NCBI RefSeq assembly: GCF_003991155.1
Contig: NZ_CP031293.1
Source: Escherichia coli
GTDB lineage: Bacteria > Pseudomonadota > Gammaproteobacteria > Enterobacterales > Enterobacteriaceae
DNA: 64,000 bases
Strand: one strand, 5' to 3'
Under the pieces are notes generated by a model. The model did no database searches, had not been told where the DNA came from, and saw nothing but the letters and a program-made list of their open reading frames with translations. Position numbers and translations under genes: made by a program. Position 1 is the first letter of the stretch, and each line of letters opens with the position of its first letter. Positions 2,645 through 63,048 of this stretch are shown piece by piece.

Positions 2645-3249
2645 CAGAACAACAACGTCGCGAACTGGACTGGGAAAAAACCGACGGACTTATGCCGGTG
2701 ATTGTGCAACACGCGGTATCCGGCGAAGTGCTAATGCTGGGCTATATGAACCCGGAAGCTTTAGACAAAACCATCGAAAGCGGCAAAGTCACCTTCTTCT
2801 CGCGCACTAAACAACGGCTGTGGACCAAAGGCGAAACGTCGGGCAATTTTCTCAATGTGGTGAGTATTGCCCCGGACTGCGACAACGACACGTTACTGGT
2901 GCTGGCGAATCCCATCGGGCCAACCTGCCACAAAGGCACCAGCAGCTGCTTCGGCGACACCGCTCACCAGTGGCTGTTCCTGTATCAACTGGAACAACTG
3001 CTCGCCGAACGTAAATCTGCCGACCCGGAAACCTCCTACACTGCCAAACTGTATGCCAGCGGCACCAAACGCATTGCGCAGAAAGTAGGCGAAGAAGGCG
3101 TGGAAACCGCGCTGGCCGCGACGGTACATGACCGCTTTGAGCTGACCAACGAGGCATCTGATTTGATGTATCACCTGCTGGTGCTGTTGCAGGATCAGGA
3201 TCTGGATTTAACAACGGTAATTGAGAACCTGCGTAAACGGCATCAGTGA
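2638..3249 (+). CDS. hisI: Bifunctional phosphoribosyl-AMP cyclohydrolase / phosphoribosyl-ATP pyrophosphatase
   Basis: 203-aa ORF, last gene of the his operon; overlaps hisF stop. Confidence 0.95.
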
Positions 3250-3377: not shown

Positions 3378-3418
3378 AAAAAAAACGGGCATGGTGTCAC
3401 CACCCTGCCCGTTTCTCT
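3378..3418. terminator. Putative bidirectional rho-independent terminator between convergent hisI and wzzB
   Basis: A-run, GC-rich hairpin (acgggcatggtgtcaccaccctgcccgt), then T-rich tail; read on the minus strand the hairpin is followed by TTTTTTTT. Confidence 0.6.
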
Positions 3419-46647: not shown

Positions 46648-48231
46648 ATGGAATGGATTGCCGATCCGTCTATCTGGGCTGGATTAATCACGCTGATTGT
46701 GATCGAACTGGTCCTCGGCATTGATAACCTGGTCTTTATTGCCATCCTCGCCGAAAAACTACCGCCGAAGCAGCGCGACCGCGCACGGGTTACCGGGCTG
46801 CTGCTGGCGATGTTAATGCGCCTGTTACTGCTGGCGTCAATCTCCTGGCTGGTCACCCTGACTCAACCGCTGTTCAGCTTCCGCTCGTTTACCTTTAGCG
46901 CCCGCGACTTAATCATGCTGTTTGGTGGTTTCTTCCTGCTGTTCAAAGCCACGATGGAGCTGAACGAACGGCTGGAAGGGAAAGACAGCAATAACCCCAC
47001 GCAACGCAAAGGTGCGAAGTTCTGGGGGGTGGTGACACAAATTGTGGTACTGGACGCCATCTTCTCACTCGACTCGGTGATTACCGCCGTCGGGATGGTC
47101 GACCATTTACTGGTCATGATGGCCGCCGTCGTTATCGCTATCAGCCTGATGTTGATGGCCAGCAAGCCGTTAACGCAATTTGTTAACAGTCACCCGACGA
47201 TCGTTATTCTCTGCTTAAGCTTCCTGTTGATGATTGGCTTTAGCCTGGTGGCAGAAGGTTTCGGCTTCGTCATTCCGAAAGGCTACCTGTACGCTGCTAT
47301 TGGTTTCTCGGTGATGATCGAGGCGCTCAATCAGTTGGCTATCTTTAACCGGCGACGTTTTCTTTCCGCTAACCAGACGCTGCGCCAGCGAACTACCGAA
47401 GCGGTAATGCGCCTGTTAAGCGGGCAAAAAGAAGATGCGGAACTGGATGCCGAAACCGCGTCTATGCTGGTGGATCATGATAATCAGCAAATCTTTAATC
47501 CGCAGGAACGGCGGATGATTGAGCGGGTACTTAATCTTAACCAGCGTACCGTCAGCAGCATTATGACGTCGCGCCACGATATTGAGCATATCGATCTCAA
47601 CGCACCGGAAGAAGAAATCCGCCAGTTGCTGGAGCGAAATCAGCACACGCGACTGGTGGTTACTGATGGCGATGACGCGGAAGATTTGCTCGGTGTTGTT
47701 CACGTTATCGACCTGTTACAACAGTCACTGCGCGGCGAACCGCTCAACCTGCGGGTGTTGATTCGCCAGCCGCTGGTGTTCCCGGAAACCTTGCCGTTGT
47801 TACCTGCCCTGGAGCAGTTCCGTAATGCCCGCACACACTTTGCTTTTGTAGTGGATGAGTTTGGCTCGGTGGAAGGGATTGTGACATTAAGTGACGTCAC
47901 AGAAACCATTGCCGGTAACTTACCGAATGAAGTGGAAGAGATCGACGCCCGCCATGATATTCAGAAGAATGCCGACGGTTCCTGGACGGCGAATGGTCAT
48001 ATGCCGCTGGAAGATCTGGTGCAATATGTGCCGCTGCCGCTGGATGAAAAACGTGAATATCACACCATTGCCGGGCTATTGATGGAATATTTGCAGCGTA
48101 TTCCAAAACCTGGCGAAGAAGTTCAGGTGGGGGATTATTTGCTTAAAACGTTGCAGGTGGAAAGCCATCGCGTGCAGAAGGTGCAAATTATTCCGCTACG
48201 TAAGGATGGCGAGATGGAGTACGAAGTGTGA
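46648..48231 (+). CDS. yegH: Inner-membrane TerC-family protein with C-terminal CBS pair and CorC/HlyC transporter-associated domain
   Basis: 527 aa from [10 protein letters not shown]; hydrophobic N-terminal half, CBS-like C-terminal half. Confidence 0.9.
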
Positions 48232-48305
48232 TAAAACATCAAATGCGCAGGTTCAAACTGCGCATTTGATTTATACAAAATTTAGTATAATCTAAGGATG
48301 GAGTA

Positions 48306-56696: not shown

Positions 56697-56829
56697 CGCA
56701 TCTCCTTGTTAATCCGCTTTCAGCATAAACGTTATTCAGACGCTGCGCTTTGCTTTCATATTCCGGTTGTCGCGACGGCAACATTTCGCTAAAGTCACGC
56801 CCCTTCTTCACCGGCATGGGGATTATTTC

Positions 56830-58182
56830 GTGTTTATTGGTTTTGATTACGGTACAGCAAACTGTTCAGTGGCGGTCATGCGCGACGGTAAACCGCATTT
56901 GCTAAAAATGGAAAACGACAGCACGCTGCTGCCTTCAATGCTTTGCGCGCCAACGCGTGAAGCGGTAAGCGAATGGCTGTACCGCCATCATGACGTTCCG
57001 GCAGACGACGATGAAACGCAGGCGCTGCTGCGTCGGGCGATTCGTTATAACCGCGAAGAAGATATCGATGTTACGGCGAAAAGCGTGCAGTTCGGTCTTT
57101 CCTCACTGGCACAGTACATTGATGATCCAGAAGAGGTGTGGTTTGTGAAATCACCAAAATCGTTCCTCGGTGCCAGCGGCTTAAAACCGCAGCAGGTAGC
57201 GCTGTTTGAGGATCTGGTCTGCGCAATGATGCTGCACATTCGCCAGCAGGCGCAGGCGCAATTGCCAGAAGCGATTACCCAGGCGGTGATTGGTCGCCCG
57301 ATCAACTTCCAGGGGCTGGGCGGCGATGAAGCAAACGCCCAGGCACAAGGGATTCTGGAGCGCGCAGCGAAGCGTGCCGGGTTTAAGGACGTGGTATTCC
57401 AGTACGAGCCGGTGGCGGCTGGGCTGGATTACGAAGCCACCTTGCAGGAAGAAAAACGGGTGCTGGTGGTGGATATTGGTGGTGGTACGACTGACTGTTC
57501 ATTGCTGCTGATGGGGCCGCAGTGGCGTTCGCGTCTCGATCGTGAAGCCAGCCTGCTGGGTCACAGTGGTTGCCGTATTGGCGGTAACGATCTGGATATC
57601 GCACTGGCGTTTAAAAACCTGATGCCGTTACTGGGCATGGGTGGCGAAACCGAAAAAGGCATCGCCCTGCCGATTCTGCCGTGGTGGAATGCGGTTGCCA
57701 TCAACGACGTCCCTGCGCAAAGTGATTTCTACAGTAGTGCCAACGGTCGTCTGCTTAACGATCTGGTACGCGATGCCCGCGAACCGGAAAAAGTGGCCCT
57801 GTTACAGAAAGTCTGGCGTCAGCGTTTAAGCTATCGCCTGGTACGTAGCGCAGAAGAGAGCAAAATTGCGCTTTCAAGCGTAGCGGAAACCCGCGCCTCA
57901 CTGCCGTTTATCAGCGATGAACTGGCTACGCTGATTAGCCAGCAAGGGCTGGAAAGCGCCCTCAACCAGCCACTGGCGCGGATTCTGGAACAGGTGCAAC
58001 TGGCGCTGGATAACGCCCAGGAAAAACCGGATGTCATCTATCTGACTGGTGGTAGCGCCCGATCGCCGCTGATTAAAAAAGCGCTGGCAGAACAGTTGCC
58101 GGGCATTCCGATTGCAGGCGGCGATGACTTTGGCTCCGTCACCGCCGGGCTGGCACGCTGGGCGGAAGTGGTGTTTCGTTAA
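56830..58182 (+). CDS. yegD: Hsp70-family (actin-like ATPase) protein YegD
   Basis: Hsp70-like motifs (IGFDYGTANCSVA, VDIGGGTTDCSLL); most plausible start is the in-frame GTG at 56830 (VFIGFDYG), since there is no ATG right before the conserved N-terminus. Confidence 0.85.
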   Translation: MFIGFDYGTANCSVAVMRDGKPHLLKMENDSTLLPSMLCAPTREAVSEWLYRHHDVPADDDETQALLRRAIRYNREEDIDVTAKSVQFGLSSLAQYIDDPEEVWFVKSPKSFLGASGLKPQQVALFEDLVCAMMLHIRQQAQAQLPEAITQAVIGRPINFQGLGGDEANAQAQGILERAAKRAGFKDVVFQYEPVAAGLDYEATLQEEKRVLVVDIGGGTTDCSLLLMGPQWRSRLDREASLLGHSGCRIGGNDLDIALAFKNLMPLLGMGGETEKGIALPILPWWNAVAINDVPAQSDFYSSANGRLLNDLVRDAREPEKVALLQKVWRQRLSYRLVRSAEESKIALSSVAETRASLPFISDELATLISQQGLESALNQPLARILEQVQLALDNAQEKPDVIYLTGGSARSPLIKKALAEQLPGIPIAGGDDFGSVTAGLARWAEVVFR

Positions 58183-58194
58183 TTGAAAAATGGC

Positions 58195-60144
58195 TCAGTA
58201 GCGGCTTAAATCAGCCTTCGCCTGAGCCAGTTTTTCTGCCGCCTGACGTAGCTGCTCCATCAACGGCATGGTCCGTGCTGGAGCATGAAGGCGGAATCGC
58301 TGCAACTCTGTCGCACCGACAGTCAACGCCGATTCCAGCCGATGTCGTTTGGCGGTCATTTTCGCCATTACCGCTTGTCTGTCTGCTGGCGTTACCGCTT
58401 CATTCGGCCTGAAAACAAAACGGCGTTCGCAACTCGCTTTCCAGTCGATAACCGCCTGGGTCAGATGATCACCAAAACCTTTTACTTGCTTAACGCTCCG
58501 TCGGGTAACATCTGCGGCGGTTTCAATACCAAAGGACCGTAACGCCGCTTTACGCGCAGGGCCAACGCCGGGAATAGAGGCAACATCAATAAAAAATCCC
58601 TCCAGAAACTTCTGCTTCTGCCGTTCCCTTGCGGTGTCCTGAAGTGCTGCCAGATCGCGCTTTTCTTCTTCCGGTAACCCAAGAATTTCGTCCTTCATTT
58701 TTTCGAGCATCGTCCGTTTGGCGATAAAACCTTCCAGCCCGCCCAACTGTTGGATCTGGCTGACTAAATGGTCATAGTCCATTTTTGCGCGATTAAAAGC
58801 CTCTCTTTGTCGCTGGACTTCTGCTTTGTACGCTTTGCTTGTCAGGCTGCCAATAATCCAGATAGCCGCCAGCACGGGAACCAAAATGATATAACGCGGT
58901 TCTACCTGAAGGCCGCAAAGCAGCAGCGATAACGCTGACAGTGCGATCTCAATCAGAATGATGTATTCACGCCTTAACAGGCCTAAAGGAAGCGGCCTGC
59001 CAGTCGGTTGGAAATGATCGGGTAATGGCAGTTGCAATGCTGGTGGTGCTACTGACGCCATCACCATCGCCCAGACTTTCGCCAGCACAAAATCACCGCT
59101 GGTGGTAATGACCTCTTCGCCGAGATCAATAAAATAGATAACGCCTTGATTATCCAGCGCACACCACGGGCAGTCAGTCAAATGACCGGGGTAAACATGC
59201 ATTGCCGAAACGGTACATTTCTTTAACTGTTGGCGTAGTAAATCAAGTGCCGCAACCCACGCTTTTGCCGTCGGACGCCCGGTTGCCACGCCACTTTCCG
59301 TGAATGCCTGCTGAAACATGGCTTCAACATCACCTGGTAACATCGACAGCGGAATAGATCGTGGCGGCGGTTTTAAACCACGTCGCTGATTATCTGACGC
59401 GTAGGCATAACGGAAATGGGCAATATCCGTCTCCAGCGCATTACCCGCATCAGAGATAAGCGGTACACCGGAATAAGGATGCCGACCACCAAACAAGACG
59501 TGAAAAATCAGCAACGCAAGGCCAAAATTATCGTGATTCGCGGTGCGTTCAAAGCCAACAAATGACGACAAGGTTTGTAGCTCTGGCGGCGTAAAATGCG
59601 ACACGCCAACTTCGCATAAATGCAACGTGCCATTAGCGTTAATCTGAAAGGAGTCGCTATCAATCAACACCACTTTGCTGTCGCGACCTACCATAAAGCT
59701 GTTCTGGTTTACGTCACCCACGACGTGCCCGTGCTCGTGAATCGTAGCAAAAGATGAAGCAATATTGCGCGCAACATAGAGTAGAAAATCCCACGCACAA
59801 TGAGGGTAACTCTGGCGACGATGTGCCGGGCTATAGATCATATGAATCGGTTCTTTACCTGAAACCTTCGGCATCATAAAACCGATAACCTTTCCGCCTC
59901 GTCCACCGTGAAGCGTTGCCTGCGGCCAGGCGACATAATTCAACAATTGCGCGTCAGCTGTCGCAGCCATAAAGGCAAGTTTGTCCTGTTTTAAGGCGGG
60001 TGGCGGCGTGTGATAAATCTTGGCAACGCTATCGGCAAACTCCTCGATATCATAAACCGCACCTTCACCGCCTTTGCCCAGTTCACGGCCTGGCGTAACG
60101 CACTCACCAGTAGCAGTATATAAAGTGGGTTTCATGGTAACCAC
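58195..60144 (-). CDS. yegI: Eukaryotic-like Ser/Thr protein kinase with central TM segment and C-terminal extension
   Basis: 649-aa ORF with kinase-like N-terminus (GKGGEGAVY...AKIY; HGHVVGDVNQNSF; DSDSF); start could be the Met 9 nt downstream. Confidence 0.85.
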   Translation of the reverse strand: MVTMKPTLYTATGECVTPGRELGKGGEGAVYDIEEFADSVAKIYHTPPPALKQDKLAFMAATADAQLLNYVAWPQATLHGGRGGKVIGFMMPKVSGKEPIHMIYSPAHRRQSYPHCAWDFLLYVARNIASSFATIHEHGHVVGDVNQNSFMVGRDSKVVLIDSDSFQINANGTLHLCEVGVSHFTPPELQTLSSFVGFERTANHDNFGLALLIFHVLFGGRHPYSGVPLISDAGNALETDIAHFRYAYASDNQRRGLKPPPRSIPLSMLPGDVEAMFQQAFTESGVATGRPTAKAWVAALDLLRQQLKKCTVSAMHVYPGHLTDCPWCALDNQGVIYFIDLGEEVITTSGDFVLAKVWAMVMASVAPPALQLPLPDHFQPTGRPLPLGLLRREYIILIEIALSALSLLLCGLQVEPRYIILVPVLAAIWIIGSLTSKAYKAEVQRQREAFNRAKMDYDHLVSQIQQLGGLEGFIAKRTMLEKMKDEILGLPEEEKRDLAALQDTARERQKQKFLEGFFIDVASIPGVGPARKAALRSFGIETAADVTRRSVKQVKGFGDHLTQAVIDWKASCERRFVFRPNEAVTPADRQAVMAKMTAKRHRLESALTVGATELQRFRLHAPARTMPLMEQLRQAAEKLAQAKADLSRY

Positions 60145-60893
60145 ATAGCCAGTGCCAACGTTTTATCATCATCCGTACGCTCGTTTACCGCCGGGCTGGA
60201 CAAAAACTGCTTTAACAATTCAGGTAATAAATCGAGTTGTTCCTGCGTTGCTGACGCCAGTCCATTGAAAAACGGGGTAAAGAAAGGCACATGCGGAGAA
60301 TTATCCAGCATATTTAACGCCAGTCTCTGAATACCATCCGTAAATGCTGCAACTCTATGCGCACGCTCAGTGCTGGTGAAAGTTTCCAGTCTGGAAACGG
60401 CATCTTCATCGGTAATGAAATGCGTCATGTTGGCATATTCACCCACCATCGGCGTGAGAGGCAATTGCAGACCGTGACCCAAATCTACCACCACGCCGCC
60501 ATCGCCAATCTGCATAATCAAGGTGCCGTCAGGCGATGAAATCAGTCCCAGAAATGTGCAGGCAAAATCGCGAACCGCTAATTCTTTGGCTTCCGCCTCG
60601 GCAAAAAGTCGCTGACGAACGGTCAGCACAATATCCGTTGCGAGGACATCATTAAGCCCCAATTCCCCGCCCTGCACTTTTTGCATCATATAAGCCATCG
60701 CTTCATTGACGGCAAGCGTCGCACCTTCGCCACCCTGCGAAACGCTGCCTGCGCCATCAGCGACAAATACCGTCAATAATGGCTGCTGGTCTTCTAGCCA
60801 GGCAACCTGCATCTGGCAGGCATCCTGGCAAGGCAAGTCCGCGCTGATGTGCGACGTTCCAACGGTTGATGCATAGACCAGACGCCAGCTCAC
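60132..60893 (-). CDS. yegK: PP2C-family Ser/Thr protein phosphatase
   Basis: 253-aa ORF with PP2C-like metal-binding motifs (VADGAGS, TDG); overlaps yegI start and yegL stop. Confidence 0.85.
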
Positions 60894-61549
60894 ACTGACG
60901 TCCAGCCTTTTGGCGCTTCCAGCACAACTTCCGTTCCCGGCGTGGAGCGGGAAACCGAACGCAGCGAACTGGATAACCAGCTAAACAGTTCACGGAATTG
61001 TAATCCCTGCAGTGGCAAAGGCTGACGAACGCTGATTTGTGCCAAAGTCTTCATATCCGCCCCCTGAACACCGATGGAAAAGAAGGCAAACTTCTTATCT
61101 TCTTCCCCCTGAAACACTTTGTTGGCGGCAGCCTGCCACTCATCGGTTGGAGCGCCATCAGTGATCAGGAAAATCCACGGGCGATAATACGAAATACCAT
61201 TGGCACGATACTCACGTTTGCGCTCCTCAACCATATTCAGGGCTTTGGTAATGGCAGCGCCCATTGGTGTATCGCCCTGGGCAAACAGGATGGGCGGGAA
61301 AAAATTAGCGGCGCTGGTAAAGGGTTGTTCCACATGCACCGGGCCGAACGTCACAATACCGAGTTCCACTCTTTTTAAGGCCAGCGAATCGGCAAGCAGC
61401 TCATCGCGAAAGGTAACCAATCCGGCGTTAAGTTCATTAATGGGTCTACCGTTCATAGAACCAGAAACATCCAGCAGCAAAATGCAGGGGCAACGTGGTT
61501 CCGGGTTACTGGCAAAATCGCTGGTGGCAAACGTGATTTGTTCGCTCAT
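60890..61549 (-). CDS. yegL: von Willebrand factor type A (VWA) domain protein
   Basis: 219-aa ORF with MIDAS-like DVSGSM motif near the N-terminus. Confidence 0.85.
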
Positions 61550-61730
61550 AAGAAATCCTTTCTTAGAGAATTATTGAGGTCCGGTATCATACCGATTGCA
61601 ATAATGAAATAAGAGCAAACGAAGAAACTTTCAGAATTAGGCCCGGCGGCGCAGAAAATTTTGCTATTCGCCTCGCAAGAACGGAGAGCCGTCGATTGAC
61701 ACTAAGGGCGGAGTGACATAATTTCAGGAG

Positions 61731-61858
61731 TGAGGGTTAGGGAGAGGTTTCCCCCTCCCCCTGGTGTTCTTAGTAAGCCTGGAAGCTAATCACTAAGAGT
61801 ATCACCAGTATGATGACGTGCTTCATCATAACCCTTTCCTTATTAAAAGTCCTCTTCT
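61731..61858 (+). ncRNA. Sib-family antisense sRNA, copy 1 (approximate ends)
   Basis: -35 ttgaca (61696..61701), 17-nt spacer, -10 taattt; transcript fully overlaps the ibs ORF on the opposite strand; ends at GC hairpin plus tttcccgttt. Confidence 0.5.
61770..61829 (-). CDS. ibsA: Ibs-family type I toxin peptide, copy 1 (MMKHVIILVILLVISFQAY)
   Basis: 19-codon hydrophobic ORF antisense to the repeat unit; closely resembles IbsA as remembered. Confidence 0.7.
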   Translation of the reverse strand: MMKHVIILVILLVISFQAY

Positions 61859-62064
61859 CCGGGAGAGGGTTTCCCGTTTCAGCGTCCCGCTGAAATCGTC
61901 GGCTTACCTCCTTTCGCCCTGAATGCAGTCTATCGCTAACGCGTGAACAAAATAGTTTCCTCTGTGATTATTGCGTAACGTCTCGCAAAGAATATTTGCT
62001 GGCAGGATCGCAGACTACAAAGCCTGCGGATTGACAATCTGATTGTGAAGGCATACTTTCAGGA

Positions 62065-62207
62065 GTGAGGGTAGAGCGGGGTTTCCCCCGCCCTGGTAGT
62101 CTTAGTAAGCGGGGAAGCTTATGACTAAGAGCACCACGATGATGAGTATCTTCATCATGACCCTTTCCTTATTTAAGGCCCCTTCCTCGGGAGGGGCTTT
62201 CCCGTTT
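62065..62207 (+). ncRNA. Sib-family antisense sRNA, copy 2 (approximate ends)
   Basis: ttgaca -35 at 62031..62036, tacttt -10; terminator hairpin gccccttcctcgggaggggc plus tttcccgttt. Confidence 0.5.
62102..62158 (-). CDS. Ibs-family type I toxin peptide, copy 2 (MMKILIIVVLLVISFPAY)
   Basis: 18-codon hydrophobic ORF at the equivalent place in repeat unit 2. Confidence 0.7.
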   Translation of the reverse strand: MMKILIIVVLLVISFPAY

Positions 62208-62392
62208 CAGCGTCCCGCTGAAATCGTCGGCCTACCTCCTTTTGCCCTGAATACAGTCTATCGCTAACGCGTGAACAAAATAGTTTCCTCTGTGATTATT
62301 GCGTAACGTCTCGCAAAGAATATTTGCTGGCAGGATCGCAGACTACAAAGCCTGCGGATTGACAATCTGATTGTGAAGGCATACTTTCAGGA

Positions 62393-62535
62393 GTGAGGGT
62401 AGAGCGGGGTTTCCCCCGCCCTGGTAGTCTTAGTAAGCGGGGAAGCTTATGACTAAGAGCACCACGATGATGAGTATCTTCATCATGACCCTTTCCTTAT
62501 TTAAGGCCCCTTCCTCGGGAGGGGCTTTCCCGTTT
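62393..62535 (+). ncRNA. Sib-family antisense sRNA, copy 3 (approximate ends)
   Basis: Same promoter and terminator architecture as copy 2. Confidence 0.5.
62430..62486 (-). CDS. Ibs-family type I toxin peptide, copy 3 (MMKILIIVVLLVISFPAY)
   Basis: 18-codon ORF identical in protein to copy 2. Confidence 0.7.
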   Translation of the reverse strand: MMKILIIVVLLVISFPAY

Positions 62536-62720
62536 CAGCGTCCCGCTGAAATCGTCGGCCTACCTCCTTTTGCCCTGAATACAGTCTATCGCTAACGCGT
62601 GAACAAAATAGTTTCCCCTGTGATTATTGCGTAACGACTCGCAAAGAATATTTGCTGGCAGGATCGCAGACTACAAAGCCTGCGGATTGACAATCTGATT
62701 GTGAAGGCATACTTTCAGGA

Positions 62721-62863
62721 GTGAGGGTAGAGCGGGGTTTCCCCCGCCCTGGTAGTCTTAGTAAGCCGGGAAGCTTATGACTAAGAGCACCACGATGATG
62801 ATCCACTTCATCATGACCCTTTCCTTATTTAAGGCCCCTTCCTCGGGAGGGGCTTTCCCGTTT
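62721..62863 (+). ncRNA. Sib-family antisense sRNA, copy 4 (approximate ends)
   Basis: Same promoter and terminator architecture. Confidence 0.5.
62758..62814 (-). CDS. Ibs-family type I toxin peptide, copy 4 (MMKWIIIVVLLVISFPAY)
   Basis: 18-codon ORF; differs from copies 2 and 3 at positions 4-5. Confidence 0.65.
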   Translation of the reverse strand: MMKWIIIVVLLVISFPAY

Positions 62864-63048
62864 CAGCGTCCCGCTGAAATCATCGGCTTACCTCCTTTCG
62901 CCCTGAATGCAGTCTATCGCTGACTTGCGGATAAAATAGTTTCACATGTGATTATTGCGTGACGTCTCGCAAAGAATATTTGCTGGCAGGATCGCAGACT
63001 GCAAAGCCTGCGGATTGACAATCGGACCGTGAAGGCATACTTTCAGGA

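Follow-up and report, generated by a model that had tools for sequence, protein, structure and literature searches.

In bidirectional terminators, both the class described by Ju et al. (2019, SEnd-seq) and the classical two-way intrinsic terminators, one A-tract, stem-loop and T-tract stands at the ends of two convergent genes. The same configuration was found at the junction of the genes yegD and yegI in a stretch of 64 kb of Escherichia coli DNA (contig NZ_CP031293.1; the whole stretch is referred to as the window and all positions are counted from its first nucleotide). The yegD/yegI element differs from the described ones in that it does not lie between the genes. The greater part, with the T-run of yegD, falls within the coding sequence (CDS) of yegI, whose stop codon is part of the stem. 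What appears to be a terminator overlying the stop and final codons of one of the two genes, where an acquired gene cassette borders on yegD, is a modest peculiarity.

The pair also belongs to a second known class, the convergent excludons. With ExcludonFinder, 165 of these were found in strain MG1655 and yegD-yegI is explicitly listed among them (PMC12288877, Table 1), the criterion being that transcripts defined by RNA sequencing (RNA-seq) overlap in at least 50% of 58 MG1655 datasets. The small gap between the two genes is in keeping with this class. The overlap of the yegD and yegI 3' ends, which a preliminary description of this DNA had put forward as overlapping 3' untranslated regions (UTRs), is thereby supported by the literature and already in print. 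A functional excludon is characterized by mutually exclusive expression and RNase III dependence; what is documented for yegD-yegI is overlap of coverage.

The genes themselves are of familiar types. yegI is the last gene of yegL-pphC-yegI, which has the gene trio, the gene order and the overlapping stop and start codons of the vWA-PP2C-Ser/Thr kinase cassettes. Such cassettes have been named the "TerY-P triad" by Anantharaman, Iyer and Aravind (2012). Compared with defence-system models, yegL-pphC-yegI is without a match to a curated PADLOC model and the YegI kinase domain is unseen by Pfam. yegD is a standard case of the over-extended GTG-start genes of enterobacteria, with a GTG start, a Shine-Dalgarno (SD) sequence at 7 nt and a non-coding open frame upstream; no difference from that class was found and the case is settled in annotation.

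The explanation that we consider probable is that yegD has a GTG start and a promoter of its own and shares a two-way terminator with yegI at the cassette border. yegD would be a monocistronic unit transcribed from a sigma-70-type promoter, TTGTCG-17 nt-TAAAGT (56767-56795), with a leader of about 25-30 nt in which GGGGA would act as SD sequence, at a spacing of 7 nt, for GTG 56830 and a protein of 450 aa. Its 3' end would meet yegI as the last gene of the acquired cassette, and both transcription units would end on one hairpin (58191-58229) flanked by A5 and T5. Ribosomes terminating at the yegI stop, in the stem, or at the yegD stop, 8 nt before it, would compete with the hairpin, and the leaky termination that follows would account for the transcript overlap in RNA-seq. 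Of these points, the coordinates, the conserved start codon, the hairpin with its conservation and the overlap call are observed here or published; the promoter assignment, the terminator activity and the ribosome interference are inferred. The start is a routine GTG case with an over-long open reading frame (ORF) call and the junction is of a known class; neither will surprise specialists. The abutting stops would have a conventional solution, one two-way terminator where a mobile cassette landed beside the ancient alkA-yegD pair.

A hairpin shared by yegD and yegI

yegD (plus strand, 56830..58182) encodes an Hsp70/actin-fold ATPase of 450 aa with a GTG start and a TAA stop at 58180-58182, as annotated in RefSeq by PGAP. 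yegI (minus strand, 58195..60135) encodes a Ser/Thr kinase of 646 aa in RefSeq, its activity being known from the literature, and ends with TGA at 58195-58197. Sequence and annotation agree with the earlier placing of the yegD stop end at 58182 and the beginning of the yegI stop at 58195, with a gap of 12 nt. The unstranded spacer between them (58183..58194, TTGAAAAATGGC) consists of an A-run at 58186-58190 and the first bases of a stem. The layout is the same in K-12 MG1655, with yegD at 2147674..2149026 (a protein of 450 aa, record version 4), yegI at 2149039..2150985 and likewise a gap of 12 nt; some E. coli strains have a spacer of 11 nt. A convergent gap of 12 nt is by itself statistically unremarkable, while a palindrome on top of the gap is remarkable.

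The palindromic hairpin occupies 58191..58229 and can form on both strands. The outer stem TGGCTCAG at 58191-58198 pairs with CTGAGCCA at 58222-58229, and the inner stem is formed by GGCT (58203-58206) and AGCC (58213-58216). The hairpin covers the last 11 codons of yegI and the yegI stop, which falls inside the outer stem. The yegD stop is found 8 nt before the stem. In the yegI transcript the A5 run at 58186-58190 corresponds to the U-tract; in the yegD transcript this part is taken by the T5 run at 58231..58235 (plus strand), which is encoded by Lys-Glu codons of yegI. A U-tract is accordingly present on both RNAs, the hairpin being followed by AUUUUUCAA in that of yegI and by GUUUUUCUG in that of yegD. 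Folding of 58183-58240 gave -22.9 kcal/mol (z -4.05) for the plus strand and -26.2 kcal/mol (z -4.59) for the minus strand, a stability that was not reached in any of 200 dinucleotide shuffles.

One hairpin shared by yegD and yegI looks like a bidirectional intrinsic terminator in its anatomy. The statement in the preliminary description that there is no room for separate terminators is literally true but misleading, because one shared, two-way terminator-like hairpin is embedded in the last codons of yegI. A practical consequence is that deletion or tagging of the yegI C-terminus would also remove the likely terminator of yegD.

The rarity of the configuration was assessed with a custom scan that required a perfect G+C-rich stem of 7 bp or more, preceded by an A-run and followed by a T-run, and that was applied to the 64-kb window and to dinucleotide shuffles. 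Three distinct sites were found in the window as against a mean of 0.13 in the shuffles, and all three are located at gene 3' ends. Of the two sites besides that of yegD/yegI, one (3385-3412) is at a convergent junction between ORFs ending at 3249 (plus strand) and 3435 (minus strand), and the other (48242-48266) is just after an ORF ending at 48231.

The hairpin was present in all of the 13 Escherichia sequences sampled for hairpin alleles, with yegI-strand energies from -16.9 to -29.8 kcal/mol and a gap of 12 or 11 nt. The U-tract of the plus strand is TTTTT in most of the sampled E. coli strains. A weaker tract, TTTCT or TTTTC, is found in Escherichia sp. L004, in the E. coli strain L088 and in L005, which carries the label E. 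coli E69. Over the 1.8 kb around the features described here, several complete E. coli chromosomes show 100% identity and nearly all of 5,426 complete E. coli genomes an identity of 95-99%. Among E. coli genomes the junction itself (58150-58270) is more polymorphic than yegD and the flanks: for these 121 nt, 3,505 of 5,412 records have an identity of 90-95% and 183 of 80-90%, compared with 5,369 records at 95-99% for the 1.8 kb. The hairpin is thus retained despite an unusually polymorphic stretch.

The sequence of E. albertii (L006, 5354-5500) has a clean deletion of about 3.2 kb, corresponding to 58265-61480 of the window and comprising nearly all of yegI, pphC and yegL. At the deletion joint the equivalent of 58195-58264 is fused to that of 61481-61533, i.e. 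the 3' end of yegI to the 5' end of yegL. The last approximately 70 nt of yegI, including the hairpin, are kept and adjoin yegD, as expected if the hairpin serves yegD. Distant homologues of yegI, those of Klebsiella, Piscinibacter and Chromobacterium described below, have kept the C-terminal peptide ..KLAQAQADLSxx, but at the stop their DNA has neither the outer stem nor the U-tract. The outer stem would therefore not be imposed by the protein and, in the sequences compared, is Escherichia-specific.

Kosakonia, Raoultella and Buttiauxella are among several other genera with a classical terminator hairpin no more than about 10 nt past the yegD 3' end. The possibility that the hairpin at 58191-58229 is an ancestral yegD terminator was rejected, since no resemblance was seen to the sequences that follow yegD in Citrobacter, Salmonella and other genera. 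The hairpin belongs to the yegI end and the junction.

Ribosomes can interfere with terminators in general; those terminating at the two stops should hinder the formation of the hairpin, and the overlap of the transcripts may reflect leaky termination. Collision-assisted termination positioned by a stem-loop, which has been proposed for bidirectional terminators of E. coli (bioRxiv 10.1101/2022.10.23.513370), is a compatible alternative. Both yegI and pphC are reported to be barely expressed in the laboratory (PMC13232886; bioRxiv 10.1101/303594), so that any antisense interference, which the preliminary description had put forward as possible, would under standard conditions mainly be that of yegD transcription running into yegI.

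Translation start and upstream region of yegD

The GTG at 56830-56832 is followed in frame by TTT ATT GGT TTT GAT TAC GGT, encoding F I G F D Y G, and as described earlier it precedes the Hsp70-like N-terminus FIGFDYGT. The frame is open upstream to position 56767, which gives a product of 471 aa in the ORF list. The codon at 56767 was previously called ATG and is a TTG, and no other in-frame ATG, GTG or TTG is present between 56767 and 56830 in the sequence of this strain. The existing RefSeq annotation uses GTG 56830 in this strain and the corresponding codon in K-12.

Relatives of YegD were compared in 80 loci obtained by scanning one genome per species in the Enterobacteriaceae (Escherichia, Citrobacter, Salmonella, Klebsiella, Raoultella, Kosakonia, Kluyvera, Buttiauxella and others). 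The homologous start codon before F-(I/V)-G-F-D-Y-G is GTG in 58 of 79 loci and ATG in 21; in Buttiauxella it is an ATG one codon further upstream. An SD-like GGGGA (56818..56822, plus strand) is located 7 nt upstream of the GTG and is conserved in nearly all of the 79 loci, with a spacer of 7 or 8 nt in 58 of them and a range of 4-11 nt. In the alignment the insertions and deletions in this spacer are not multiples of three, and the upstream frame consequently shifts between species. The upstream TTG is unusable in 43 of 78 loci, being out of frame in 40 and followed by a stop before the start in three. In several species the frame is closed by a stop 1-16 codons ahead of the yegD start, with no alternative start.

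The Pfam HSP70 profile matches YegD with E = 1.1e-24, residues 3-228 corresponding to profile positions 2-205, and the N-terminus carries the phosphate-1 motif (xGxDxGTxN) as MFIGFDYGTANCS. Since profile position 2 aligns to residue 3, the GTG product begins where the Hsp70 fold begins. On these comparisons the translation start of yegD is GTG 56830. The upstream 21-codon extension would consist of promoter and leader DNA that is by chance open in this strain, and its appearance as coding sequence is an artefact of the ORF list. The comparison of 79 loci, the HSP70 boundary and RefSeq all bear out the earlier view of a GTG start with an untranslated extension, which is not a new inference. The curated YegD of 450 aa is correct; the relevance of this is small and mainly a matter of annotation housekeeping. 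Translation of YegD and its activation by RyhB have been seen with ribosome profiling (Ribo-seq; Wang et al. 2015, PMC4666370), in which the start position was not mapped.

Upstream of the start, TTGTCG (56767..56772, plus strand) is a putative -35 element of yegD, its first three bases being the TTG "start" of the ORF list, and TAAAGT (56790..56795, plus strand), within a GCTAAAGTC block invariant in 30 aligned species, is a putative -10 element. The motif TTG(T/C)(C/T) is conserved upstream of the invariant TAAAGT at a distance of 17 nt in 73 of 79 loci and of 16 nt in five, and the length of the spacer is kept while its sequence varies freely. Because the two elements are conserved at a fixed distance with a variable sequence between them, TTGTCG-17 nt-TAAAGT is probably a conserved sigma-70-type promoter of yegD. 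The transcription start site (TSS) is predicted at about 56801-56804, and the TTG of the ORF list is most likely the first half of the -35 element and hence outside the mRNA.

On the minus strand, AAT-N6-GCAA (56750-56762), which we take to be an Ada box, and the alkA -10 element TATGCT (56722-56727) are both conserved across genera. The TSS of alkA has been mapped, with a 5' UTR of 19 nt and a printed promoter of 51 nt (Kim et al. 2012 supplement, PMC3415461). Placed on the window, this sequence covers 56715..56765 on the minus strand, from the TSS at 56715 to position -50.

The putative -10 element is part of a conserved block of 41 nt, CATTTCGCTAAAGTCACGCCCCTTCTTCACCGGCATGGGGA (56782..56822, plus strand), which also spans the short 5' leader and the SD sequence. 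The block is near-invariant from Escherichia to Buttiauxella in the alignment of 30 genera and species, and TAAAGT and GGGGA explain only part of it. No stable fold was found in the yegD leader (z +0.8 to -0.4) and the block had no match in Rfam; a structured, riboswitch-like RNA was rejected, as there was neither a fold signal nor an Rfam family. A comparison by eye of the leader with the sigma-32, sigma-E and sigma-54 consensus sequences gave nothing convincing. The predicted pairing of RyhB with the yegD leader (RNAduplex) was no better in energy than with shuffled targets. yegD is a validated target that is activated by RyhB at the level of translation (PMC4666370). The leader at about 56796-56817, CACGCCCCTTCTTCACCGGCAT, may be an uncharacterised site of post-transcriptional control, for example a docking site for RyhB, another small RNA (sRNA) or a protein that activates yegD. 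At the other end of the gene, the position of the yegI stop inside the hairpin may let translation of the last yegI codons gate two-way termination and so couple the kinase cassette to yegD. Taken jointly, these two ideas are speculative and given a low probability. The conserved leader together with the reported activation by RyhB is a useful pointer for those who work on YegD.

The 41-nt block was also seen to be almost invariant over about 80 species of Enterobacteriaceae, including one locus without alkA as immediate neighbour.

An ATG at 56816 was rejected as the true start or as an upstream ORF (uORF). Its frame agrees with that of yegD in 35 loci and differs in 40, it is without an SD sequence, and in E. 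coli and about half of the species it is out of frame. An older annotation of K. pneumoniae MGH78578 (KPN_02521; Kim et al. 2012 supplement) gives yegD a length of 1371 nt, compared with 1353 nt for the E. coli gene. In the K. pneumoniae locus L063 the conserved ATG inside GGCATGGGGA is in frame 18 nt upstream of the start, and such an in-frame upstream ATG would account for the extra length in MGH78578.

Origin of the yegL-pphC-yegI cassette

The two genes upstream of yegI in the cassette are pphC (60132-60893, minus strand), encoding a PP2C phosphatase (Pfam PP2C_2, E = 3.4e-51), and yegL (60890-61549, minus strand), encoding a vWA protein (Pfam VWA, E = 5.4e-10). The genes overlap by ATGA at 60132-60135, where the yegI ATG meets the pphC stop, and at 60890-60893. 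The YegI kinase domain had no match in Pfam; the kinase activity of YegI has been reported (PMC13232886; bioRxiv 10.1101/303594).

Among the loci compared, yegI adjoins yegD only in E. coli and its closest relatives within Escherichia. In every other genus alkA-yegD is followed by a terminator of its own, by a sib/ibs repeat or by other unrelated sequence. As yegI is next to yegD only in close Escherichia, the vWA-PP2C-kinase cassette is an insertion next to the ancient alkA-yegD pair. We regard the yegL-pphC-yegI cassette as horizontally acquired.

The same three-gene cassette was found in Klebsiella spallanzanii, Piscinibacter aquaticus and Chromobacterium haemolyticum (L090, L092 and L093), with kinases of the same length and about 60% identity. 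It is there accompanied by BrxR and JetB (Piscinibacter), a KAP NTPase (Chromobacterium) or unrelated regulators and enzymes (Klebsiella), and yegD is absent from these surroundings. The distribution and the neighbours suggest a mobile, possibly defence-related module. PADLOC v2.0.0 gave no match at the level of a system; YegI had only weak partial matches (MkoA, PD-T4-6, E ~2e-4), and PphC and YegL had none.

Alternative explanations and flanking genes

Translation of yegD wholly or partly from TTG 56767, giving a protein of 471 aa with an N-terminal extension of 21 residues, is very improbable. The frame is open in this strain, and 35 of 78 loci have an uninterrupted in-frame TTG 60-66 nt upstream, the conceptual peptide of which looks semi-conserved (..AKVxPLLHxHGD). 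This likeness is, however, one of nucleotides, since the same bases are in other frames or interrupted by stops in the other 43 loci. Furthermore, no SD sequence is found ahead of the TTG, which is 2 nt past the -50 edge of the alkA promoter and within the conserved -35-like hexamer. The RefSeq and K-12 curation use the GTG, and the Hsp70 fold is present from residue 3 of its product. Some observations weigh against a promoter and a two-way terminator as proposed for yegD. The list of Kim et al. (2012, PMC3415461), which gives TSSs for alkA and yegL, has none for yegD, and the promoter hexamers agree with the consensus in 4/6 positions each (8/12), where a generic scan with a threshold of 9/12 made no call. 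At 39 nt and with an internal loop, the hairpin is long by the standard of textbook terminators, and it was missed by a simple terminator scan, in which loops of up to 8 nt were allowed and that of the hairpin is larger. yegD and yegI are absent from the searched Term-seq supplements of Adams (2021). In Escherichia sp. L004 the hairpin is weaker (-11 and -18 kcal/mol) and the T-run is TTTCTCC, and among the 13 Escherichia sequences the stem changes are single-sided, G-U tolerated or weakening, with no compensatory pair.

That the hairpin is a tolerated structure at the yegI 3' end, the transcript ends being set by Rho, head-on RNA polymerase collision or 3' processing and the transcripts running far into the opposite gene, is unlikely. 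The overlap called from RNA-seq (PMC12288877) and the missing compensatory changes are in line with it, as is the derivation of the inner stem GGCT/AGCC from conserved Ala-Asp-Leu-Ser codons. Many bidirectional terminators of E. coli are moreover unlike intrinsic ones and depend on collisions positioned by stem-loops, at least as the work of Ju et al. (2019) is cited in bioRxiv 10.1101/2022.10.23.513370. On the other hand, the conserved peptide does not require the outer stem of 8 bp or the two A/T runs, all of which are specific to Escherichia, and E. albertii kept them after the deletion of the cassette. The configuration is also about 20-fold rarer in shuffles than observed, and the two other sites in the window are at gene 3' ends, one of them convergent. 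The junction could instead be a regulatory excludon, in which expression of one of yegD and yegI represses the other by transcriptional interference or RNase III cleavage and a chaperone-like protein is linked to a kinase-phosphatase module. This is quite improbable, even though the pair is part of the MG1655 excludome (PMC12288877), termination would be sensitive to translation with the stops in or next to the hairpin, and yegD expression rises strongly on overexpression of yegJ, for which the authors speculated on a common pathway (PMC13232886). The pairing of yegD with alkA is ancient, while the cassette adjoins yegD in Escherichia alone and is found elsewhere with unrelated neighbours and no yegD. 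Expression of yegI and pphC is barely detectable in the laboratory, and the excludon listing is based on a relative coverage threshold and not on a functional test.

In the RefSeq records of identical genomes the gene order of this part of the window is dgcE, alkA (minus strand), yegD (plus strand), yegI, pphC and yegL (all minus strand) and ibsA. For yegI the ORF list has a GTG start at 60144 and RefSeq the ATG at 60135, which gives 646 aa and overlaps the pphC stop. The 5' end of yegI is different in K-12 (648 aa, MKTNIKVF...) owing to the insertion of yegJ between pphC and yegI, as also reported in PMC13232886.

A further tight convergent pair is formed by dgcE (plus strand, end 55801) and alkA (minus strand, end 55839), with a gap of 37 nt. 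It is likewise a convergent excludon according to PMC12288877. Downstream in the window, a repeat of about 270-380 nt is present in four tandem copies (61615-61990, 62052-62318, 62380-62646 and 62708-62974), all of which match one segment of E. albertii. Two Ibs-family toxin genes are annotated in RefSeq, in repeat copies 1 and 2 (approximately 61770-61829 and 62102-62158), and K-12 has a total of two sib/ibs units.

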